57,996 bases of DNA from Anaerolineae bacterium (GCA_034434635.1 DAOTYX010000118.1:1-57996); one strand, 5' to 3'; shown: positions 21,467 through 53,855, numbered from the stretch's first letter. The notes: generated by a model not told the origin, from the letters alone. Program-made: numbers and translations.

Positions 21467-21541
21467 TACCCCCGGCAGGATTCGAACCTGCGACCTTTTG
21501 GTCCGCAACCAAACGCTCTATCCAGCCTGAGCCACGGGGGC
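21467..21541 (-). tRNA. tRNA-Arg(GCG)
   Basis: GCCCCCG/CGGGGGT acceptor; anticodon arm TTTGG-TTGCGGA-CCAAA; GGTTCGAATCC T-arm; CCA not encoded. Confidence 0.95.
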
Positions 21542-21556
21542 ACGGTCACGCTACGC

Positions 21557-21648
21557 TGGCGGGGAGGCAGGGATTCGAACCCTGGGTCGAGTTTTACCCC
21601 GACAACCGCTTAGCAGGCGGCCCCGATCGTCCACTCCGGCACCTCCCC
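21557..21648 (-). tRNA. tRNA-Ser(GCT)
   Basis: GGGGAGG/CCTCCCC acceptor, G73 plus encoded CCA; anticodon loop CTGCTAA; long variable arm. Confidence 0.97.
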
Positions 21649-21671
21649 CTTACGGCTATGCTTTTGTTGAG

Positions 21672-21758
21672 CGGAGGCAGAGGGATTCGAACCCCCGGTG
21701 ACCTCACGGCCACAACGGTTTTCAAGACCGCCGCCATCGTCCACTCGGCCATCCCTCC
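21672..21758 (-). tRNA. tRNA-Ser(TGA)
   Basis: GGAGGGATGGCCGAGTGG; anticodon loop CTTGAAA; long variable arm; G6:G67 acceptor mismatch; CCA not encoded. Confidence 0.93.
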
Positions 21759-43320: not shown

Positions 43321-46257
43321 TCAGCAGCCGGCTGGCGGCTGGCCTGCGGTCTCCCGTGACGGCTCCTCATCGCGGATGCGCAGCGTGGGATCGCCGTAGA
43401 GGATGAACGATGCCCACGTCACGTCGTTGGGGCGGGTCTGGCGAGTGTGAAGGCGGGCCTGACGCATGGCCTCGCCGATCATCTCGCCGCCCAGCAGGTG
43501 CTCGTAGAAGGTGACGGCGAATTCGGCGGCTCCCTCGTCGAAAATGGGCCAGAGCGTGCCGATGAAACCCAGCGCGCCGCCGAGGATGAAGGAAAGGGCT
43601 AACCCCTCCCCTTCGGAGCCGGTGTAGGTGATCTCCTCCTCTGCTGCCTCCCGGCCCGACTCACAGGCGTTGAGGAAGACCAGCGGGCGGCCGCGCAGCA
43701 TGCGCTGGATGGTGTCGGCGATGAAGACGCTGCCGTCGGCCAGCACCAACCCGCTCTCGTTCGGCGTCTCGCGGTTGTAGAAGGCGTGACCGCTGTAGTG
43801 GATGACGTCATACTCGCCGCTGCGGAACGCCTGATGGAGGCGGAGGTTGGTCACCTCTGCGCCCTTCCAGACGGTCGCCTCCACCCCCTGCAGGCGGCTC
43901 ATGATGAGGTCCACCTCCCGTTCGCTGGCCGGCAGGTCGCCAGCAGGGTTGGCGATGAACAGGAAGCGGAGCCTCTCAGCGCGCCGGTACTCGTTCCGGC
44001 GCGGGAAACGGTTCATAATCGGCATGCGGGCAACAGGGTTGCGCATGCACAGGAAATCCTCTCCGGTGTGCAGCAATTCCCACGGCAGTTCCAGGTCATC
44101 GGTGGCCAGCAGGACCGAGGTCTGGGCTTCGCGCAGATGCTCCTGGATGGGGACGGGAAGGAACAGGCCGTACATCATGTCGCCCAGGGAGGCCAGGGAT
44201 TCGATGGCGCTGCGCATCCTGAGTTGGGTGCGCGGCCCGCGCATGCCGCCTTGCGTGCCGAAGAGCAGGTTGATCACCGTAGTCAGGTCGTCAATGGCCT
44301 GGCGCAGGTCCACCCGATCCTTGTACCCCACCTTGATGTCGCCCTTGATGGAGCCGGCGTCCCCCCAGCCGCTGCCGGAGATGTTGAGGATGACGTTGTA
44401 GCGGGTGACGTCCCCTTTCTCCGGCACGCGGGCCAGGGAGAGGGTGGTCTTCAGTTGGAGCGCGGCGGCCAGGGCGATGCGTCGCTCCAGCCCTTCACGC
44501 AGTTCGGTGAGTTGTCGGCGATCGAGCGGCGAGAGGCAGGTCCAGGCTTCCTCCCAGGCCTGGCGCTGAGCAGCCTCCTGGGCCCGTTGGAGCGCTGTGC
44601 GCCACTCTTCCAAAGTGCGGCGCTCGGCCTGCACCAGCAGACCGTGCCGTTCGGCGTTCTGCAGCGCCTCTTCCAGCGTCTCCACGTCCACCTGTGCGTC
44701 GGCCAGGCGGGCAGTGATTTCCTCTTCTCCTGCGGACGGCGCGGCGGGGGCGCGGGCGCCCAGTCTGGCGGCCACACGCGCCTGCAGCCGCTCCGGCGGT
44801 TCGACCTCTGCCAGAAGCGCCTCGAGCGGCGCGGCGTCCGTGAGCCGGCGCAGCGGATCCACGCCAGCAAGGCGGGCCAGAACCTGCGTCGTCGCCTCCT
44901 GTTCGGCGGCCAGGGCCGGGTCGTTGAGCAGAGCCAGGCGGGCCTGGAGGGTAAGGTACTCCTGGCGGTAGCGCTGGAGCACGGTGAACAGTTCGTCAAT
45001 ACGATGGTCGGTCTCCTGCAGGGCAGCGACCTGACGGCGCAGGGCGGTCAGCGCCTGTTCCGCCTCGTCGAATCGCTGGCCGGCCTGGGTGTAGTCGCCG
45101 GAGCGATAGGCAGCCAGGCCGGCGCGGATCGTCGCCTCGACGGCCTGCTGGCTGGCCCGCACCCCCTTCAGTTCGACGTGGGTCAGGGCGGAGGTCTCGC
45201 TGGCGATCTGCTTCAAGGCGGCGGAGAGGCCCGCGCCGCGCTGGACAATCTCCTGTCCCAACCGTTGCCGTTCCACAGCGTCCTGGCGCAGCCGGGGGAT
45301 ATCCACCCCTTCCAGCCGGTCCAGAGCCGCCTGAACCGCGGCGAAGGTCTGTTGCGCCGCCTCCAGGTTGCCGCGCTTGCGTGCGCCCTCCCCGGCCTTC
45401 AGTCGAGCGCGGAGGTCGCTGATCTCCCTGCGGACCGACGAGAGGTCCACAGCCAGACCGGTCAGGCTCTCGTCCACGGCTTTGACCCGCGCCTCGAGTT
45501 CGCGGCGCTGTCGGTCGAGGTCATCGCGCTGCTGTTCCTTGCGCTGTTGCTCTTCCAGGAGTTCCGCCACGTGTTGGCGGAGCGCTTCCGCGTCCTCCTG
45601 GGCGAAGCGGCTGGTGAGCAGGGAACGGGCCCGCTCCAGGTCACCGGCAGCCAGGGCGCGCCGTCCGGCTTCCAGGCGGGCCTGTACGCTGTGCCGGGCG
45701 GCGGTCACCGCGGTGGGGTCCGCCAGGGGTGCCTGGCGGAGTGCCTTTTCGGCTTCCTGGAGGACGGCGACCAGGGGAGCCTCTCCCTGCTGGAGGATCT
45801 GCGCCCGCTGTTGACGGTCGGCCTGGAAGGCGGCGAGGTGCTGCTGGAGGGCGGAGACTTCTTGCTGTGGGGCAGGGCCGGTGAGGAGGGTGCGGGCACG
45901 GTTGAGGTCCTTCGCGGCCAGGGCGCGACGGCCGGCGTCGAGGCGGGCGCGCACGGCCTGCAGGCAGTTGCCGAGGGCGGCGGGGGCTGGCTGGCCCGCC
46001 TGACGCAGCGCCTGTTCCGCCGCCTGCACCGCCCCTGCAAGGAGCGCGACGGCCTGTTGCACCTCGTCTGCGGCGGCCGTCTCGGCGGTCAACGGCGCGC
46101 CGCAGTGGCGGCAGAAGCGGCGTCCTGGCGGATTGGCAGTGGCGCAGCGGGGACAGTTCAGCCCGCCCGGCGCCGCTGCGGCGGTCAGCCGCGCGCCGCA
46201 ACGGCGACAGAACCGGTTACCCTCCCGGTTCTCGGTTCCACAAGAGGGACACTTCAC
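43321..46257 (-). CDS. Double Zn-ribbon + helical repeats + CHAT (caspase-like) protease, 978 aa
   Basis: CPSC..CRRC and CPRC..CRHC; LDDLELPWE-like DDLELPWELL; catalytic IHYSGH and VFLNACESG; TLWPIFD; WASFILYGDP. Confidence 0.92.
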   Translation of the reverse strand: MKCPSCGTENREGNRFCRRCGARLTAAAAPGGLNCPRCATANPPGRRFCRHCGAPLTAETAAADEVQQAVALLAGAVQAAEQALRQAGQPAPAALGNCLQAVRARLDAGRRALAAKDLNRARTLLTGPAPQQEVSALQQHLAAFQADRQQRAQILQQGEAPLVAVLQEAEKALRQAPLADPTAVTAARHSVQARLEAGRRALAAGDLERARSLLTSRFAQEDAEALRQHVAELLEEQQRKEQQRDDLDRQRRELEARVKAVDESLTGLAVDLSSVRREISDLRARLKAGEGARKRGNLEAAQQTFAAVQAALDRLEGVDIPRLRQDAVERQRLGQEIVQRGAGLSAALKQIASETSALTHVELKGVRASQQAVEATIRAGLAAYRSGDYTQAGQRFDEAEQALTALRRQVAALQETDHRIDELFTVLQRYRQEYLTLQARLALLNDPALAAEQEATTQVLARLAGVDPLRRLTDAAPLEALLAEVEPPERLQARVAARLGARAPAAPSAGEEEITARLADAQVDVETLEEALQNAERHGLLVQAERRTLEEWRTALQRAQEAAQRQAWEEAWTCLSPLDRRQLTELREGLERRIALAAALQLKTTLSLARVPEKGDVTRYNVILNISGSGWGDAGSIKGDIKVGYKDRVDLRQAIDDLTTVINLLFGTQGGMRGPRTQLRMRSAIESLASLGDMMYGLFLPVPIQEHLREAQTSVLLATDDLELPWELLHTGEDFLCMRNPVARMPIMNRFPRRNEYRRAERLRFLFIANPAGDLPASEREVDLIMSRLQGVEATVWKGAEVTNLRLHQAFRSGEYDVIHYSGHAFYNRETPNESGLVLADGSVFIADTIQRMLRGRPLVFLNACESGREAAEEEITYTGSEGEGLALSFILGGALGFIGTLWPIFDEGAAEFAVTFYEHLLGGEMIGEAMRQARLHTRQTRPNDVTWASFILYGDPTLRIRDEEPSRETAGQPPAGC

Positions 46258-47002: not shown

Positions 47003-48256
47003 TCATCTCGCTACCGTGAGGGGCAGGACGAAAAGGGCCACGGTGATGACGGCGATCATCACCGTCAGCCCCCCGACCAGCCAGTTCTGCACACGCCGGT
47101 TAGCCCACTCCCCCATCACCCGCCGGTCGTTCGCCAGCACCAGTGCCAGCACCAGCAGCACCGGCAGCAGGATGGCGTTCAGCGACTGCGACAGCCACAT
47201 AATGGGGAAGAGTGGGATCCCCGGAATCAGCACCACCAGGGCGCTGAAGGCGATGATGGCGGTGTAGAGGCCGTAGAAGATCGGCGCGTCACGCAGCCTT
47301 TGGTCCAACCCGCGCTCCCAGCCGAAGGCCTCGCACACGGCGTAGGTGGTGGAGAGAGGCAGCACCGAGGCAGCCAGCAGCGACGCCCCCAGCAACCCCA
47401 CGGAGAAGAGATAACGCGCCCCGGCTCCGGCCAATGGCTCCAACGCCACCGCCGCCTGCTCTGCCGTCTCCACGGAGATGCCGTGCACATAGAGCGTCGC
47501 CGCGGTGCAGATGACGATGCAGGCAGAGACGATATTGCCCCAGGCGGCTCCGACGGCCACGTCGAGCCGGGTGTAGCGATATTCCTTCAAGTCCACCCCT
47601 TTGTCGGCCACAGAGGCCTGTATGTAGACGATTCCCCAGGGTGTGACGGTCGTGCCGATGGTGGCCAGGACAGCCAGGATGTACTGGGGATTGCTCTGGA
47701 AGGTAGGAATGACCGCCTGGCGCAGGATCTCCTCCCACGGGGGGTGCAGGATGAAGGCCGAGACCACATAGCTCAGCGCCGAGAGGCACAGCGCCAGCAG
47801 GACTTTCTCGACGTGGGTGTAGGAACCGCGCAGCACGATGAAGCCCACCAGCAACGCCGCCAGCGGGACGGCGACATAGCGGCTGAGGCCGAACATCTCG
47901 GCGCCAGCGGCGATGCCGGCAAACTGGGCCACCGTCGTGCCCAGGTTGGCCAGCAGCAGGCAGAGCATAGCGAAGGCCGTCACCCGCACACCGAAGCGCT
48001 CGCGGATCAGGTCGGCGGTCCCTTTGCCGGTCACGGCCCCCATGCGGGCTGCCATCTCTTGCACGATCACCAGGCCCACAGCCATTACCGCCAGCAGCCA
48101 GAGTAAGTGGTAGCCGTAGGTCGAGCCGGCCATCGAGTAGGTAGCGATGCCGGGCGCATCGTTGCCCGCGTTGGCAGTGATCAGGCCAGGTCCCAAGATG
48201 GCCAGGAAGAACCATATCCGCCGCAGCACGGAACCGGCACGGGATTTCAGGGTCAT
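47003..48256 (-). CDS. NRAMP-related divalent metal (probably Mg2+) transporter, ~417 aa
   Basis: LGPGLITANAGNDAPGIATYS, QEMAARMGAVTGKG, IGTTVTPWG; lacks the DPGN motif of MntH; ATG 48256. Confidence 0.85.
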   Translation of the reverse strand: MTLKSRAGSVLRRIWFFLAILGPGLITANAGNDAPGIATYSMAGSTYGYHLLWLLAVMAVGLVIVQEMAARMGAVTGKGTADLIRERFGVRVTAFAMLCLLLANLGTTVAQFAGIAAGAEMFGLSRYVAVPLAALLVGFIVLRGSYTHVEKVLLALCLSALSYVVSAFILHPPWEEILRQAVIPTFQSNPQYILAVLATIGTTVTPWGIVYIQASVADKGVDLKEYRYTRLDVAVGAAWGNIVSACIVICTAATLYVHGISVETAEQAAVALEPLAGAGARYLFSVGLLGASLLAASVLPLSTTYAVCEAFGWERGLDQRLRDAPIFYGLYTAIIAFSALVVLIPGIPLFPIMWLSQSLNAILLPVLLVLALVLANDRRVMGEWANRRVQNWLVGGLTVMIAVITVALFVLPLTVAR

Positions 48257-48275
48257 CGGAGGCCTCCTTCGCCGG

Positions 48276-49535
48276 TCAATACAGGCGCGGCAGACGCTTC
48301 TTCCACGCCGTGGGCAGGATCGTGTCCACGGCATCGTCCACAGTGACAATGCCCAGCATCTCGCCCGTCCGGCTGTCCACTACCGGGACGGCCAGCAGGT
48401 CGTACTTGGCCATCAGGTAGGCCACATCCTTCTGCGAGGCGTAGGGGTCGACGGTGACCGGCGATTCTTCGGCCTCCTCATCAAGTGGGCGGTCGGGTTG
48501 GGCCATGACCAGGTCGCGCAGACTGACCACGCCGCGCAGGCGCCGCTCGGGGTCGAGGATGTACACGTAGTACATCGCCTCGTCGTCCTGGGCATCGGGC
48601 GACCTCCGCAGGTAGTCCAGCGCTTCGGCGGCGCGCAGGCCCACCGGCACCCAGGCGAACTCGGTGGTCATGATGCCGCCAGCGGAGTCCTCGGGGTAGC
48701 CCAGCAGTGCCTGGACGTCCTCGGCGTCCTCGTCCTCCATCAGGTCTAGGAGGCGGGCGCTGGTCTCCGTCGGCAGATCGGCCAGCAGGTCGGCCGCCTC
48801 GTCCGGTCCCATCTCCTCCAGGATGTCGGCAGCCCGTTCGGGGGCCAGTTGGGAGAGGGCGGCCACCTGGACCTCGGGAGGGCTTTCCTCGAGGGTGTCG
48901 GCCAGGGTCTCATTGTCCAGCCGGGAGAGGAGGGCCTGACCGGTCCTGCGGTCCAGGTCGTTGAGGATCGCGGCGATGTCGGCGGGCGGCAGGCGGCTGA
49001 TCCTCTCGCGCGAGATGCGCAACCGCAGCGGGTCGCCGTGCTGCAGGGGGGCGACGTCCTCCCAGGGGATCACGCTCTCGGGCAGGCGGCGGCGCAGGCG
49101 GCGGGCCAGCGCGACGGCGGGCCGCTCGACTCCCAGGCGCCGCAGCAACCCCCGGCCGCCCACGTCCACGCCGGTCAGGCAGAAGTGGTCATTCACCCGC
49201 GCGATCTGCAGGTCATTGACCCGCACCACGCGCCGCCCCTCGGTGTCCACGACCTGGCGGTCCAACACCCGCTCGCCAAGCGGCAGGACCTCGCCGTGCG
49301 GCGTGTAGGGGGTGATCTCCTCCCTGGGGACTCTGAGCACGACTTCGGGGAACAGTTCGCTGATCTGCTCGGCGGGGATCAGATGGGCTGGCGCGCCGTG
49401 GTCCTTCAGCACCAGCGCCACAACGGGGGGGAACGGCTGTTCCAGGTTTCCCACCAGGATGTCGGCGCACCGCCCAACGGGGCGGCTCCAGGCATCCCAA
49501 ACCTTGCGACCTCGGACCTGGCTCAGGTACAACAT
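48276..49535 (-). CDS. PRC-barrel + MgtE N-terminal + CBS-pair protein without TM domain, 419 aa
   Basis: LDRQVVDTEGRRVVRVND, PADIAAIL, MGPDEAADLL, YPEDSAGGIMTTE, YDLLAVPVVD, GIVTVDDA; ends WKKRLPRLY with no TM. Confidence 0.9.
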   Translation of the reverse strand: MLYLSQVRGRKVWDAWSRPVGRCADILVGNLEQPFPPVVALVLKDHGAPAHLIPAEQISELFPEVVLRVPREEITPYTPHGEVLPLGERVLDRQVVDTEGRRVVRVNDLQIARVNDHFCLTGVDVGGRGLLRRLGVERPAVALARRLRRRLPESVIPWEDVAPLQHGDPLRLRISRERISRLPPADIAAILNDLDRRTGQALLSRLDNETLADTLEESPPEVQVAALSQLAPERAADILEEMGPDEAADLLADLPTETSARLLDLMEDEDAEDVQALLGYPEDSAGGIMTTEFAWVPVGLRAAEALDYLRRSPDAQDDEAMYYVYILDPERRLRGVVSLRDLVMAQPDRPLDEEAEESPVTVDPYASQKDVAYLMAKYDLLAVPVVDSRTGEMLGIVTVDDAVDTILPTAWKKRLPRLY

Positions 49536-49812: not shown

Positions 49813-49840
49813 ATTATACCCGAGAGCGTGGGCTTGTCAA
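49813..49840 (-). promoter_or_regulatory. Consensus sigma70 promoter of the MgtE(N)-NRAMP operon
   Basis: TTGACA (49840-49835), 16 bp spacer, TATAAT (49818-49813). Confidence 0.85.
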
Positions 49841-49947: not shown

Positions 49948-50105
49948 GTAATTACCTGCCCGGCTGCCCGCCACCGTGTGCCGATTGGAAATCGGCCTTT
50001 CTGGGTGCCTGCGGCGCCAGGCGTCGGCCTGCGCCGACGCGGAAACAGCGGTCGGCGCAGGCCGACCGCAGGCCGAAGGCCTGAAGCGGGCGACTTCAGT
50101 CGGCG
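49948..50105. repeat. ~160-bp composite extragenic repeat, copy 1
   Basis: 54/56 identity over the first 56 nt with copy 2; hairpins GCCGATT-GGA-AATCGGC and GTCGGC-GCAG-GCCGAC; ends ttcagtcggcg. Confidence 0.88.
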
Positions 50106-50117
50106 GCAGCGCCGCTG

Positions 50118-50702
50118 CTATCGCCGGTGGGTCCAGCGGCGCCACCACGGCTCACGCGGCGAAGGCACAGCGGATGGTTCGATCTCGGAAGCAGGGAAGG
50201 GCGACGGCCGATGTTTCGTCGTCTTCTCCAGCGCCGCGAGCCGCTGCTGCAGCGCGTCCCGCTCGGCGCGCAAAGAGGTGACCAGCGCTGTTAGCCCTGC
50301 CACCTGGGTGCGGAGGGCGCCGTCGGTCAGACAGGCGGACTGATAGGCCTTCAGGAAGTCCCAGACCCGGCGTTTCATCACCGCATACTGCATCTCCATC
50401 TGACGCATGCGGCGCACCAGAAGGTCCAGTTCGTCCCGCGCTGGCGCATCATCCTGCTGGATCAGGGCGCGCGCCTTCTCTTCCAGAAAGGCCCCCAACC
50501 CCAGGGACAGCAAAGCCACGAATGCCTCTCCCCGGGGCCATTCCTGCTCTCTGGCCACAGCCTGAATCTGCTCCACCATCTCGGCGGTCAGATCTATGGA
50601 GACACGTACCAGGCCGCCAGGGAAGTATTCTGCCTCGAAATCCGCCGCCGGTATCTGGGCGCTGATCTCATCCAGCAGGTTTTCGCGGTGACTTTCATCC
50701 AT
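50118..50702 (-). CDS. Putative ribbon-helix-helix + coiled-coil protein with Trp/Arg amphipathic tail, 194 aa
   Basis: VRVSIDL-TAEMVEQIQAVAREQE-WPRGEAFVALLSLGL pattern; heptads; C-terminal PWWRRWTHRR; AGGAGA SD. Confidence 0.7.
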   Translation of the reverse strand: MDESHRENLLDEISAQIPAADFEAEYFPGGLVRVSIDLTAEMVEQIQAVAREQEWPRGEAFVALLSLGLGAFLEEKARALIQQDDAPARDELDLLVRRMRQMEMQYAVMKRRVWDFLKAYQSACLTDGALRTQVAGLTALVTSLRAERDALQQRLAALEKTTKHRPSPFPASEIEPSAVPSPREPWWRRWTHRR

Positions 50703-50719
50703 CGGGTGTTCTGTTCTCC

Positions 50720-51496
50720 TCAGGTAAAGGCCGTACCGTCCGGTCCGCCGAAGAAGAGGGAGGCGCGCCGTGGTGCGTCTCGCTCGTCATCTGTCATTTC
50801 CTCGTGGCGGTACTGCCAGGTCTGCTTGCGAGCATATTCGCTCAGCGCCACCGAGAGCCGCTCCAGCCTGGCTTCGGTCGCGCCAACCAGAAAGCGCGCC
50901 TCGTCGGGATGGTCCGCCGTTGCCCGTTCGAGCGCCTGGCGCAGGTGGGGCAGGCAGAGGCCATCCGACGCGCCGTAAGATTCGCGGAAATCGGGGTCGG
51001 CGCAGCCCATGACCAGCCAGTGCATGTACCGTTCTTCGGCGTCGGTGCAGTGGACACACACGCGGCATGGTTCAGATGGGCTGATGCTGGTAGGTCGCCG
51101 GGCCGGCCCGGCCCATCCAAAGGCAGCCTTCAGGCGGGTCCACCCTCGCTGCCACCAGTGGGTGCACGGTTGCTGGGGGGCACGCAGGTGTGCTTCGAAA
51201 TGGCGCAGGCCACCCATCACGCGGTGAACCAGGTTCTCATAGATGATGCTGACGCCCAACCCGCTGCCGAACTGGCTGATTTCGGTGTGATAGAGTTGCC
51301 AGGTGTGCTCCGGACAGAATCCCAGGCTTCGCAGCAGGTGCACACGCGTGGTCACGTCGTTCACGTTTTCCCAGAGCAGGCGGAAGATGTAGCGATCGGC
51401 CACCCTGCGCTTGAGATGGCAAATCGGGCACCCCGGCTGGCGAAACGCCTCCCTGAGTTCGATCCAGGTCAGCATCGGGATCTCGTGATCGTTCAT
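50720..51496 (-). CDS. DUF6062-like protein B (two CxxC...CxxH units), 258 aa
   Basis: ATG 51496 (ATGA overlap); CPIC...ENVND...GFCPEH; CRVC...GLCLPH. Confidence 0.8.
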   Translation of the reverse strand: MNDHEIPMLTWIELREAFRQPGCPICHLKRRVADRYIFRLLWENVNDVTTRVHLLRSLGFCPEHTWQLYHTEISQFGSGLGVSIIYENLVHRVMGGLRHFEAHLRAPQQPCTHWWQRGWTRLKAAFGWAGPARRPTSISPSEPCRVCVHCTDAEERYMHWLVMGCADPDFRESYGASDGLCLPHLRQALERATADHPDEARFLVGATEARLERLSVALSEYARKQTWQYRHEEMTDDERDAPRRASLFFGGPDGTAFT

Positions 51497-52176
51497 CCCG
51501 TTCGGCGTTCTCCTGCCACGATGCCGGTCGCCCGTAGCCAGCTGTCTCCTTCCTGACCGAAGCCCTTGCCGATGAAGCAATAGTCGTATTTGCGGATCAG
51601 TTCCTCCAGTTCGCCTCGCAATCTTTCCAGTACTGAGCGCTGGAGGCGCAGCAACTCCTGGAGTTGGTCGGTGTTCTCGACCAGTTCCAGGGCGCGGGAG
51701 AAGTGGGGCACGCAGAGGCCGGACGTCTGCGACAGCGCGGCGATCAACGGGGCGTCGCTCAGGTACTTGAGCAGTGTGTGGATGGCGATTTCCTCCATAG
51801 CCCGCTGGTGAGCGCAGGCCGGGCACTCGGCGGTGGGGCGCAGCCGCTGAAGGACGTTCTGGGCACACTGCCGGGCGTTCTGGCCGGATGGCGTGACGCT
51901 GATGGCCTCCAGCACGGTGCCCAGCACGTCGTGTTGAATGATCGCCGTGCCCAGCACGACTCCGTGCCCCGCGGTGAACATCCAGGCATGAGTGTTGCAG
52001 AAGCCCCGGGCGTCGCGCAACGCTGTCCGCACGCCGAAGTCATTGACGCGCTCGTACATCGTGTCGTCCAGATAACTGCGCACGAATGCCAACGACAGGC
52101 GGCAGAGAGGACAGCCCGGTTTTGTGCACGCCTCGAGCAGGTCGGAGTACAGCCGGTCTTTTTTCGTCGTCTCCAT
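51493..52176 (-). CDS. DUF6062-like protein A (two CxxC...CxxH units), 227 aa
   Basis: CPLC...ERVND...GFCNTH; CPAC...GLCVPH; AGGA SD. Confidence 0.82.
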   Translation of the reverse strand: METTKKDRLYSDLLEACTKPGCPLCRLSLAFVRSYLDDTMYERVNDFGVRTALRDARGFCNTHAWMFTAGHGVVLGTAIIQHDVLGTVLEAISVTPSGQNARQCAQNVLQRLRPTAECPACAHQRAMEEIAIHTLLKYLSDAPLIAALSQTSGLCVPHFSRALELVENTDQLQELLRLQRSVLERLRGELEELIRKYDYCFIGKGFGQEGDSWLRATGIVAGERRTG

Positions 52177-52187
52177 GGACTTGTCCT

Positions 52188-52222
52188 GAAACGAAAAGCC
52201 TCTACCTGAAAAGGTAGAGGCT
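52188..52222 (-). terminator. Riboswitch expression-platform intrinsic terminator
   Basis: Perfect 11-bp stem AGCCTCTACCT-TTTC-AGGTAGAGGCT followed by TTTCGTTTC, 11 nt before ATG 52176. Confidence 0.9.
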
Positions 52223-52278
52223 ATCAGTCATCCCAGACAATTGGCAGGCCAGGCCTGCTGGCGAGCCTCATCGCCAGC
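52214..52278 (-). ncRNA. Fluoride riboswitch (crcB RNA motif)
   Basis: GCUGGCG-AUGAGGCU-CGCCAGC (P1); AAUU; GUC-UGGGAU-GAC (P2); UGAU-AGCCUC-UAC. Pseudoknot GAGGCU/AGCCUC is perfect. Matches the recalled GGCGAUG...CGCC...AAYUG...CUGAUR..CUAC consensus. Confidence 0.9.
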
Positions 52279-52283
52279 CGTGG

Positions 52284-52311
52284 ATTATAGGTTACTTTGG
52301 GCAGGTGTCAA
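52284..52311 (-). promoter_or_regulatory. Consensus sigma70 promoter driving the riboswitch leader
   Basis: TTGACA (52311-52306), 16 bp spacer, TATAAT (52289-52284); predicted TSS ~52278 coincides with the 5' end of P1. Confidence 0.88.
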
Positions 52312-52318
52312 GACGGGG

Positions 52319-53668
52319 TTATCTGACGCGCGCCCATTCCTGTGCCGCCATCTGCACCGCGTCCCACGGCGTGCTGAGCGGCGGTGTGTAACTGAGGTCT
52401 ATGTCGCTCAACGCCTCCACCGTCATCCCGTTGAACAGCGCCGCGGCGAAAAGGTCCACCCGTTTGGAGACCTCTGCCGCCCGGTGACCGACGATCTGTG
52501 CTCCCAGCAGGCGGCCCGTCCGGCGGTCACCGGTGACCCGGAGGTGGAGGGTGTGCGCGCCAGGGTAGTAGACCTTGTGATCCCAGGTCTCGACCTGCAC
52601 GGTGAGCGGGTCGAAGCCGGCCTCGCGCGCTTCGGCGTCGCGCAGTCCCGTGCGGGCGGCGACCCGATCGAACACCTTGACCACCTGCGTGCCCAGCGTC
52701 CCGGCGAAGGTGGCCTGTCCACCGACCGCGTTCTCCCCGGCCACGCGCCCCTGCTTGTGCGCCGTGGAACCCAGGGGGAGATAGACGTACCGCTCCAGCA
52801 GCCGATGGTAGGTCTCGACGCAGTCCCCGGCGGCGGTGATGTGCGGGACGTTCGTCTCCATCGCGCGGTTGACGCGGATCGCCCCCCAGCGGCCCGTCTC
52901 GATGCCAGCGGCAGCCGCGAGGCGGGCATCCGGACGCACGCCGGTGGCCACCAGCACCAGGTCGGTCTGGACCTGGAATCCCCCGGAGCCGCTCACGACC
53001 AGCCGCTGCCCCTGGCGGTCAATGGCCTGCACCGCCACGCCGGTGGCGAAGGCGATGCCATGCCGGTTCAGTTCCTCGCCTACCAGCGATCCCAGCGGCG
53101 GGTCGAGCGTGGTGAGCACGGAGGGCAGGTACTCCACCAGCGTGACCTGCAGCCCGCGGCGGGCGAGGGCCTCGGCCATCTCCAGGCCGATGTAGCCGCC
53201 ACCGACCACCAGCGCGGAGGCGGGCGAGCGCGCTACCAGATGGTCGCGCAGGGCGAAGCCATCGGCCATCGTGCGCAGGAAGAAGACGCCCGGAAGTTCC
53301 AGCCCCTGGATGGGTGGACGGGCCGGGACGGCGCCGGTGGCGATGACCAGGCTGTCGTAGGGTATGTCCTGCGACCTGCCAGCCCCGTCCATGACCGTCA
53401 CCCGCCGACCGTGAGGGTCTATGACCTGGGCGGTGTGTTCCAACAGCAGGCGGATGGAATGGGCTTCGATGTCCTCCGCCTTGCGGTGGGCCAGGTCTTG
53501 CGGGTCGGCGACCTCGCCGCCGAGCCAGAAGGGGAGGCCGCAGATGGAGTAGTTGGGGTAGCGGTCGGCGACGACGACGGTGACCTCCCAGGCAGGGCTC
53601 ACCTCCCGCGCGCGCAGCGCCGCGCTGATGCCAGCGTCACTTCCGCCGATGATCAACAGATGGGGCAT
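52319..53668 (-). CDS. CoA-disulfide reductase / NADH oxidase-family flavoprotein
   Basis: GGSDAGISAA, single redox Cys YSICGLP, GGGYIGLEMAE, AAGDC, LSYTPPLS. Confidence 0.9.
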   Translation of the reverse strand: MPHLLIIGGSDAGISAALRAREVSPAWEVTVVVADRYPNYSICGLPFWLGGEVADPQDLAHRKAEDIEAHSIRLLLEHTAQVIDPHGRRVTVMDGAGRSQDIPYDSLVIATGAVPARPPIQGLELPGVFFLRTMADGFALRDHLVARSPASALVVGGGYIGLEMAEALARRGLQVTLVEYLPSVLTTLDPPLGSLVGEELNRHGIAFATGVAVQAIDRQGQRLVVSGSGGFQVQTDLVLVATGVRPDARLAAAAGIETGRWGAIRVNRAMETNVPHITAAGDCVETYHRLLERYVYLPLGSTAHKQGRVAGENAVGGQATFAGTLGTQVVKVFDRVAARTGLRDAEAREAGFDPLTVQVETWDHKVYYPGAHTLHLRVTGDRRTGRLLGAQIVGHRAAEVSKRVDLFAAALFNGMTVEALSDIDLSYTPPLSTPWDAVQMAAQEWARVR

Positions 53669-53681
53669 TTTTCCTTACCTC

Positions 53682-53855
53682 GTAATGACCTGCCCGGCTG
53701 CCCGCCGCCGTGTGCCGATTGGAAATCGGCCTTTCTGAGCGCCTGGCGTTCCCCGCCTCCTGCGCCTGGCGTCGCCCTGCGCCGACGCCTTCACTTGCCG
53801 GTCGGCGCAGGCCGACCGCTGACCGCAGGCCCACGGAGGGCGGTTTCAGTCGGCG
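53682..53855. repeat. ~170-bp composite extragenic repeat, copy 2 (direct orientation to copy 1)
   Basis: gtaatgacctgcccggctgcccgccgccgtgtgccgattggaaatcggcctttctg ... gtcggcgcaggccgaccgc ... ttcagtcggcg. Confidence 0.88.

Follow-up and report, generated by a model that had tools for sequence, protein, structure and literature searches.

The window analysed in this study, meaning the whole stretch of DNA, comprises 57,996 nucleotides from an Anaerolineae bacterium (GCA_034434635.1, DAOTYX010000118.1:1-57996). Between positions 52311 and 50118 it holds a promoter, a leader of the fluoride (crcB-motif) riboswitch type and an operon of three genes, all of them on the minus strand. The operon consists of two genes for members of the uncharacterised DUF6062 family (ORF1 and ORF2) and a gene for an orphan protein (ORF3), and no known fluoride-toxicity gene class is represented in it. 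Judged from the sequence, the leader is very probably a functional fluoride riboswitch acting as a transcriptional ON switch, with DUF6062 as a recurrent member of the fluoride regulon in Chloroflexota. The RNA belongs to a known riboswitch class, and what is new are its output genes, namely DUF6062, usually paired, and an orphan coiled-coil partner.

Promoter, aptamer and terminator

A gene for a CoA-disulfide-reductase-like protein (53668..52319) ends directly before a sigma-70-type promoter (52311..52284), for which the promoter scan gave a 12/12 match. Its −35 hexamer TTGACA (52311-52306) and its −10 hexamer TATAAT (52289-52284) are separated by a spacer of 16 nt, and each shuffled version of the region is expected to give 0.3 promoter-like sites. 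The transcription start would lie about 6-8 nt downstream of the −10 hexamer, at or a few nt before the base of the first aptamer stem (P1), which opens 6 nt past this hexamer. Promoters of the type TTGAC-N17-TATAAT were also read by eye a few nt before P1 in most of the related aptamers described below.

The aptamer (52278..52214) was recognised by reading of the sequence, by a sub-threshold match to the Rfam family RF01734 (Fluoride), by a family covariance model (R1) and by covariation. As read from the sequence, P1 has up to 7 bp (52278-52272 with 52263-52257), the outermost of which are in competition with an inserted hairpin. The P1 loop, AUGAGGCU, holds the conserved GAUG and the 5′ strand of a perfect pseudoknot, in which GAGGCU (52269-52264) is paired with AGCCUC (52222-52217) at 6/6 positions. 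A second hairpin, here called P3 (GUC-UGGGAU-GAC, 52238-52236 with 52229-52227), is directly followed by UGAU (52226-52223), and UAC (52216-52214) forms the 3′ end. The conserved single-stranded nucleotides GAUG, CUGAU and CUAC are all there, and they are invariant or nearly so across the alignments of homologous leaders. An extra hairpin of 15 nt with a 6-bp stem, GCAGGC-CUG-GCCUGC (52258-52244), is located between P1 and the linker CCAAUU. It has a folding energy of −8.9 kcal/mol and lies outside the Rfam consensus, so that the alignment to the Rfam model displays it as 14 inserted nt.

Downstream, an intrinsic terminator (52222..52188 including its tail) was found by terminator scan and folding. 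Its 11-bp stem is formed by 52222-52212 with 52207-52197 around the 4-nt loop UUUC and is followed by the tail UUUCGUUU; the hairpin alone has −18.4 kcal/mol (z = −7.5). The 5′ arm of the terminator, AGCCUCUACCU, includes the 3′ strand of the pseudoknot, positions 52222-52217 being part of both structures. About 12 nt separate the end of the U-tract from the ATG of ORF1 (52176), and AGGA is located 7 nt before this ATG. A first-pass annotation of the same DNA had described the promoter, P1, the pseudoknot, GAUG, UGAU and CUAC, P3 (as P2) and an 11-bp terminator sharing the 3′ strand of the pseudoknot, all of which were found again; the extra hairpin, on the other hand, had gone unmentioned.

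A terminator overlapping the 3′ strand of the pseudoknot is present in nearly all related leaders. For the fluoride riboswitch class, ON logic has been proposed from just this overlap (PMC2864571), and the overlap seen here therefore points to an ON switch. Transcription would begin a few nt before P1, and when fluoride is absent AGCCUCUACCU would pair with its downstream complement, so forming the 11-bp terminator and causing a stop before ORF1. When fluoride is bound as a Mg2+-F− cluster, the AGCCUCUACCU segment would be tied up with the P1 loop in the 6-bp pseudoknot, which would block the terminator and let an mRNA of three genes be produced, encoding the two DUF6062 paralogs and the orphan coiled-coil protein. 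In the Thermotoga petrophila structure from the work of Ren et al. in 2012, this cluster is reportedly held by backbone phosphates near GAUG and CUGAU.

Rfam scoring and distribution of related aptamers

The gathering score of RF01734 is 34 bits, which is a curated cut-off and not a structural feature. At this threshold no match to RF01734 was obtained in the Rfam scan of the whole window, in which only three tRNAs were reported. In a local E-value scan, the best match to RF01734 had 25.7 bits (E = 3e-5, 52284..52208); it was the only Rfam match with an E-value below 0.1 and was full-length, covering model positions 1-64. The first-pass annotation had predicted a strong match in a cmscan search, and this prediction failed. 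According to the alignment, the score stays below the threshold because of the 14-nt insertion and one non-canonical pair in P3. Taken alone, such a score is suggestive but short of the threshold, and the leader was therefore compared with its relatives.

One genome per GTDB species was scanned, which gave 401 loci with a relative of ORF1, and the 80 most similar loci, mostly from Chloroflexota, were examined (numbered with the prefix L). Homologs of ORF1 were found almost only in metagenome-assembled genomes (MAGs) of Chloroflexota. Aptamers were searched for by a regular-expression scan and then with the covariance model R1, which was built from 30 leaders and detected 41 aptamer sites in the 80 loci and the window, the window aptamer scoring 61.1 bits. 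The aptamer is located directly upstream of DUF6062 in 21 loci, and a further 10 loci have it at the head of an operon in which other genes of the same direction come before DUF6062. The intervening genes encode enolase (L022, L066), a Zn-ribbon/HEAT protein (L027, L031, L033 and L050, in three of these four together with a Na+/H+ exchanger and a USP-CBS protein), an ORF3 homolog (L039, L049, L073) or MutS-like proteins (L079). A survey of how often DUF6062 loci carry the riboswitch had been suggested in the first-pass annotation, and its outcome is at least 31 aptamer-headed loci of 80, or at least 31 of 76-80 when the 4 loci with too little upstream sequence to judge are considered.

Several of these aptamers exceed the Rfam threshold in their own right. 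Directly before DUF6062 this applies to L062 (51.1 bits; a Methylomirabilota MAG), L078 (39.0 bits), L015 (37.0 bits) and L008 (34.8 bits), and ahead of an ORF3-like gene followed by DUF6062 it applies to L049 (42.5 bits) and L039 (37.7 bits). Fourteen loci were scanned by both methods, and of the 21 sites that R1 detected in them 10 were recovered at the Rfam threshold. About half of the related Chloroflexota aptamers known from the family model are lost at this threshold, mainly those that bear an inserted hairpin. The fluoride regulons of Chloroflexota are therefore probably under-annotated.

The operons behind the related aptamers also hold genes for enolase, a pyrophosphatase-domain protein, Na_H_Exchanger, Usp+CBS and MutS_V proteins, and CrcB is encoded in adjacent riboswitch-controlled units in L022 and L046. 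Enolase, pyrophosphatase, Na+/H+ antiporters, USP/CBS and MutS-like proteins are classic gene classes of fluoride riboswitches (PMC11139923; PMC2864571), and because the gene sets behind the aptamers are of these classes, the ligand is very probably fluoride.

Covariation and the optional hairpin

Covariation was counted on the 41-sequence model alignment for the 16 pairs of P1, the second hairpin and the pseudoknot. Paired cells amounted to 91.5%, compared with 84.1 ± 0.8% in column shuffles and 33-50% when the partners were slid. Changes on both sides were found in 10 of the 16 pairs, and the observed values were reached in none of 500 shuffles (0/500). In the pseudoknot, 100% of the cells are paired across the family and 3 of 6 pairs show compensatory changes, with variants such as GAAGCU/AGCUUC, GGAGUU/AACUCC and GUGGCU/AGCCGC. 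Changes on both sides were also seen for 4 of the 7 pairs of P1 in the 41 sequences, while in P3 all three pairs covary and 95% of the cells are paired. The leader feature of the window is far beyond chance.

At the position of the insertion, a hairpin is present in about 15 related aptamers, each time with a different sequence. Its arms include CAGGC/GCCUG, CGGGU/GCCCG, GGCGGU/GCCGCC, GGCAGC/GCUGCC, GCAG/CUGC, UGAG/CUCA, GCGA/UCGC, AGGAG/CUCCU and GUUUC/GAAAC, and other related aptamers have a canonical 5-nt linker of the AAACC type. As the arm sequences are unrelated and nevertheless pair, the inserted hairpin was concluded to be a real, selected and optional element, and the aptamer of the window, which has it between P1 and the linker, represents a lineage variant. 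The same inserted hairpin occurs in the closer metagenome relatives L087/L088 and L089/L090 (72-74% identity), in which the changes in the hairpin loop and in P3 preserve pairing. An extreme case was noticed in L079, where the fluoride aptamer (L079:2688-2820) has an insertion of about 60 nt with a long extra hairpin in the P1-P3 region.

Compared with RF01734 as represented by the Bacillus cereus crcB and T. petrophila riboswitches, the window has in common P1 with a loop of the AUGAGGCU type, a 6-bp pseudoknot between this loop and the 3′ tail, a short second hairpin followed by CUGAU, the 3′ CUAC and a terminator over the 3′ strand of the pseudoknot. It differs by the 15-nt covarying hairpin between P1 and the linker, by the linker CCAAUU in place of AAACC, by a P3 of 3 pairs and by its sub-threshold score.

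A number of observations speak against a working fluoride switch in the window. Its aptamer has 25.7 bits, with membership of the Rfam family set at 34 bits; P3 is a short hairpin with three Watson-Crick pairs and a U.U mismatch; the U-tract UUUCGUUU is interrupted; the closest homologs of ORF1 in the genome collection (L001-L004, 67-71% identity) are without a riboswitch; and the same is true of about 60% of the DUF6062 loci, the family not being exclusively fluoride-linked. The low score, the imperfect P3, the 14-nt insertion and the finding that L001-L004 have lost or never had the riboswitch would all fit an aptamer-like leader that is decaying or inactive, in which a promoter and a constitutive terminator or attenuator are left and do not respond to fluoride. 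Such an inactive copy is improbable, given that all conserved nucleotides and the perfect 6-bp pseudoknot are intact, that the relatives at 72-74% protein identity retain the architecture with pairing-preserving changes in the hairpin loop and P3, and that insertion-bearing aptamers pass the Rfam threshold elsewhere (L008, 34.8 bits; L078, 39.0 bits; L046, 36.3 bits). There would also be little sense in a constitutive 11-bp terminator ahead of three genes that are intact and conserved.

With its extra hairpin and sub-threshold score, the aptamer falls into a structural subclass, and the immediate output genes are uncharacterised; it may thus be asked if the hairpin-bearing variant has changed its specificity to a ligand other than fluoride, as occurred in some other riboswitch classes. 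This is very improbable. Among close relatives, aptamers that bear the hairpin alternate with aptamers that lack it, and the genes under their control are of the same sets, including those for enolase, a pyrophosphatase-domain protein, a Na+/H+ antiporter and USP-CBS. The core elements GAUG, CUGAU and CUAC are unaltered. The insertion point is in the linker, which we take from the T. petrophila structure to be away from the phosphates of the Mg2+-F− cluster. The functional fluoride riboswitch hence stays the preferred reading, and the transcriptional ON design of aptamer and overlapping terminator, which the first-pass annotation had put forward, is supported by the anatomy, by the Rfam passes of relatives and by the covariation.

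A further alternative concerns the genes and not the RNA. DUF6062 could be a passenger without a role in fluoride biology, its link to the riboswitch being due to common descent of a syntenic block within a single lineage, as nearly all loci are from one phylum and about 60% of the DUF6062 loci lack a riboswitch. However, the association is kept in at least five operon arrangements, with DUF6062 being the first gene or following enolase, ORF3, the ZnR-HEAT/NaH/USP-CBS genes or MutS-like genes, and it extends down to about 35% protein identity, including the Methylomirabilota MAG L062. Repeated reshuffling with riboswitch control kept argues for selection, and we consider the passenger explanation unlikely. 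At the level of genome organisation, the link between DUF6062 and fluoride stands.

DUF6062 proteins ORF1 and ORF2

ORF1 (227 aa, 52176..51493) and its paralog ORF2 (258 aa, 51496..50720) were assigned to the Pfam family DUF6062 (PF19538), which has a gathering cut-off of 27 bits. ORF1 matched with 66.2 bits (profile positions 17-238 of 243) and ORF2 with 71.1 bits (6-235 of 243), and no NCBIfam model matched either protein. The description as two DUF6062-type Cys/His proteins in the first-pass annotation thus stands, as both are above the Pfam cut-off and contain CxxC and CxxH motifs. The ATG of ORF2 overlaps the stop codon of ORF1 (ATGA), which suggests translational coupling.

In ORF1 the motif CxxC...CxxH occurs twice, with C22, C25, C60 and H63 in the first and C118, C121, C155 and H158 in the second copy, and the eight Cys/His columns are invariant in 29 diverse sequences including both paralogs of the window. 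The AF2 model of ORF1 is all-helical (pLDDT 90.8), and each CxxC and CxxH is placed at the N-terminus of a helix, a predicted geometry typical of metal sites. Tentatively, each paralog has two Cys3His metal sites, probably with structural Zn. The two halves of ORF1 are homologous (hhalign probability 96%, E = 4e-9), and DUF6062 is therefore a tandem duplication of a helical Cys3His module of about 90 aa.

The family comprises at least 5,308 representatives at 50% identity (E ≤ 1e-3). Many of its top members are about 450-520 aa long and contain two DUF6062 stretches, and since such fused proteins exist in nature, ORF1 and ORF2 probably work together. A SpoIIAA-like (STAS) domain is fused to DUF6062 in a single member (P0212). 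Two irregular copies were observed among the related loci. In L087, from a 72%-identical relative, the ORF2 paralog is cut to a 61-aa remnant joining the N- and C-terminal ends (L087:6675-6860), and the operon continues with a member of an unannotated family designated c5, followed by genes for an ORF3 homolog, for enolase and for a P-type ATPase. In L079 an ORF2-like DUF6062 frame runs into enolase without a stop, giving an ORF of 711 aa (L079:6734-8869), which could be a genuine fusion or, since the enolase has its own Met, the product of erroneous ORF calling in DNA rich in G+C.

A resemblance, and not more than that, exists to the zinc-containing anti-sigma (ZAS) domains. Like these, DUF6062 is small, all-helical and cytoplasmic with Cys/His ligands at helix ends, and the STAS domain fused to one DUF6062 protein is a partner-switching module. 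The ZAS motif is HxxxCxxC, whereas that of DUF6062 is CxxC...(~34 aa)...CxxH and duplicated, and DUF6062 has no sequence or fold match in the PDB. No sigma factor gene was noticed beside DUF6062. In full-text literature searches, which did not cover the gene tables of Baker et al. 2012, no mention of DUF6062 or PF19538 was found, and a full-text search for fluoride riboswitches in Chloroflexi yielded no relevant literature. Fluoride is also outside the scope of the RegPrecise paper on RNA regulons.

Orphan protein ORF3

ORF3 (194 aa, 50702..50118) starts 17 nt past ORF2 behind GGAG and belongs to no Pfam or NCBIfam family. Its homologs form 25 clusters, all unnamed and without a Pfam family. 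The structural model is of moderate confidence (pLDDT 73.8, pTM 0.39) and shows a strand (32-36) and two helices, giving a beta-alpha-alpha topology, followed by a coiled-coil helix of about 78 residues (86-163). A ribbon-helix-helix (RHH) domain at residues ~32-83 is thus possible according to the model, and proteins combining RHH with a coiled coil, such as MatP, CdbA and CopG/Arc, have the same order of a strand, two helices and then a long helix. They differ from ORF3 in that every match is non-significant and the model confidence is moderate. The RHH_1 match has 11.9 bits (E = 0.23) and is below the cut-off of 20.5 bits, and no significant Foldseek match to the ORF3 model was obtained, the best RHH-type ones (CdbA, TCP, MatP) having E-values of 1.4-5.2. 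For lack of a significant Foldseek match, the RHH assignment was not adopted. Of the RHH-coiled-coil protein named in the first-pass annotation, the beta-alpha-alpha topology and the long helix are reproduced in the model, whereas the RHH assignment itself finds no significant match in sequence or fold.

Homologs of ORF3 were found in 9 of the 80 loci by blastp clustering (L008, L027, L031, L033, L035, L039, L042, L049 and L073, all in riboswitch operons), in 3 by tblastn and, by translation, in the riboswitch operons of L087/L088. They are located before or after DUF6062. A fusion of DUF6062 and ORF3 in L062 was considered and rejected, as the C-terminal coiled coil of that protein is not homologous to ORF3 (hhalign probability 10%), so that it provides no Rosetta-stone link.

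Gene neighbourhood

No match to CrcB was found by tblastn in the 58-kb window, and the same holds for the Na+/H+ antiporter, enolase, MutS-like, USP-CBS and ZnR-HEAT proteins. Ten other long ORFs of the window encode housekeeping proteins and no CLC according to Pfam, a check that was not exhaustive. The statement of the first-pass annotation that the operon has no exporter is in line with its gene content and with both of these searches.

The classic fluoride regulon includes CrcB/Fluc, CLC-F, enolase, pyrophosphatase, Na+/H+ antiporters, USP/CBS, MutS-like proteins, HAD and formate hydrogen lyase. Related DUF6062 loci are similar to it in sharing riboswitch-led operons with such genes and in having riboswitch-controlled crcB as a neighbour, and the operon of the window differs in having none of these genes. 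DUF6062 is absent from the lists of fluoride-riboswitch genes in the reviews PMC11139923, PMC7266159 and PMC2864571.

Enolase is encoded in the DUF6062 locus in 17 of the 80 loci, usually adjacent to it, and 8 of these 17 loci have no detectable riboswitch. A MoxR AAA+ ATPase gene follows DUF6062 in 7 of the 80 loci, including the closest riboswitch-less homologs, and a Zn-ribbon/HEAT protein is encoded in 9 of the 80. MoxR comes directly after DUF6062 in L001, L004/L091, L006, L008, L013 and L015, with DUF58 and DUF4129 genes next where annotated (L091). This MoxR set is under a fluoride aptamer in L015, L013 and L008, and in L004/L091 it stands without an aptamer after cobW/HypB-like and HypC genes. 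The family c5 (~125-160 aa, no Pfam match), found for example at L008:9875-10342, was observed with enolase, MoxR and DUF6062 as neighbours in fluoride-riboswitch operons of L008, L009, L046, L065 and L087/L088, which makes it another orphan that may belong to the fluoride regulon.

Directly after the stop codon of ORF3 lies an intergenic repeat (49948..50105) that is structured and about 160 nt long, with a hairpin of about 20 bp and no U-tract. A second copy in direct orientation (53682-53855) is 82-94% identical, and there are just these two copies in the window. They flank a 3.7-kb block made up of the CoA-disulfide-reductase-like gene, the riboswitch and the DUF6062 operon, and a similar element is located upstream of the riboswitch-less DUF6062 gene in L001. 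The repeat after ORF3 is probably the 3′ boundary of the operon, and the element could be REP/MITE-like or a cassette boundary. No canonical terminator was found after ORF3, where the structured repeat is located instead, and some read-through into the next unit may occur.

This unit has its own perfect TTGACA-16-TATAAT promoter (49840..49813, minus strand) with a leader of about 275 nt, in which no Rfam family was matched, and encodes on the minus strand a soluble MgtE_N+CBS protein (48276-49535) and an NRAMP transporter (47003-48349). The two ORFs overlap as listed; with the NRAMP start called in the identical locus L081, a 19-nt gap is left between them. The pair is downstream of the DUF6062 operon in the window and directly upstream of riboswitch and DUF6062 in L089/L090. 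Possibly it serves the regulated uptake of Mg2+/Mn2+, and this deserves attention because fluoride acts through Mg2+ complexes. Elsewhere on the minus strand of the window, three tRNA genes (21467-21758; Rfam scores 65.9, 51.8 and 49.7 bits) were found, two of them with long variable arms. A 978-aa protein (43321-46257, minus strand) has zinc ribbons at its N-terminus and a CHAT (caspase-like) domain at its C-terminus, together with a long coiled-coil/repeat region, and a zinc-ribbon membrane protein of 188 aa is encoded ahead of it.

Possible role of the operon and implications

The neighbourhood of DUF6062 points to a cytoplasmic role at the protein or regulatory level, tied to enolase and divalent-metal physiology and not to transport. 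The two paralogs, which are fused elsewhere, might form a hetero-pair and act with the ORF3 protein as a cytoplasmic adaptor or regulatory factor; this is a tentative model, as is the suggestion that the task of this factor would be to shield or re-adjust those parts of central metabolism that are fluoride-sensitive, enolase being the most likely partner or target. The DUF6062 hetero-pair or fused double, with four Cys3His sites, and the ORF3-family coiled-coil protein could constitute a so far unrecognised non-export arm of fluoride defence in bacteria, a proposal to which we give somewhat less than an even chance. Such an arm may bind and protect or regulate enolase or other Mg-dependent phosphoryl-transfer enzymes, or it may be a regulator induced through the riboswitch, by which genes that have no riboswitch are drawn into the fluoride response.

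Some points count against the proposed function of the proteins. With the ORF1 model, Foldseek returned nothing from the PDB with an E-value below 1, and the DUF6062 profile found nothing among PDB sequences with an E-value below 0.3. The Cys/His sites are binders of soft metals with no obvious fluoride chemistry, and the basis of the proposed function is neighbourhood and motifs. The first-pass annotation had spoken of a fluoride-stress response or resistance system; membership in the regulon follows from the at least 31 of 80 aptamer-headed loci, while a protective function remains a proposal.

The products of the operon might instead be confined to transcription and not act on enolase or other proteins directly. 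They would then form a second-tier module, consisting of a zinc-containing anti-sigma-like or partner-switching protein and a ribbon-helix-helix DNA binder, through which genes without a riboswitch are reached. In favour of such a module are the modelled N-terminal beta-alpha-alpha topology and coiled coil of ORF3 with its weak RHH_1 match and weak Foldseek likeness to CdbA, TCP and MatP, the natural STAS-DUF6062 fusion (P0212), and the small, helical and Cys/His-rich nature of DUF6062, which has no enzyme-like relatives. But the evidence for RHH is non-significant (E = 0.23; all Foldseek E-values > 0.5), ORF3 homologs were found in only some of the DUF6062 operons (9/80 by blastp, 3 by tblastn, and L087/L088), and the STAS fusion is one case. 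Adjacency to enolase (17/80) and MoxR (7/80) fits a role at the protein level at least as well. A purely transcriptional module appears rather unlikely, even if it is to be taken seriously.

Fluoride riboswitches have been the main route to the discovery of how cells cope with fluoride, leading to the Fluc and CLC-F exporters and to the compensation for inhibited enolase and pyrophosphatase. The locus described here and at least 31 related ones add the uncharacterised DUF6062 family, with at least 5,300 clusters, to fluoride biology. In Chloroflexota, no gene is coupled to the riboswitch more tightly than DUF6062, which is often located beside enolase, the classic target of fluoride. For a niche field, the locus offers a solid lead that can be tested; it is not a new kind of system. 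It makes testable the question of fluoride protection by means other than export and enzyme over-production, and the non-export arm, if true, would bring a new protein fold and a new mechanism to fluoride biology.

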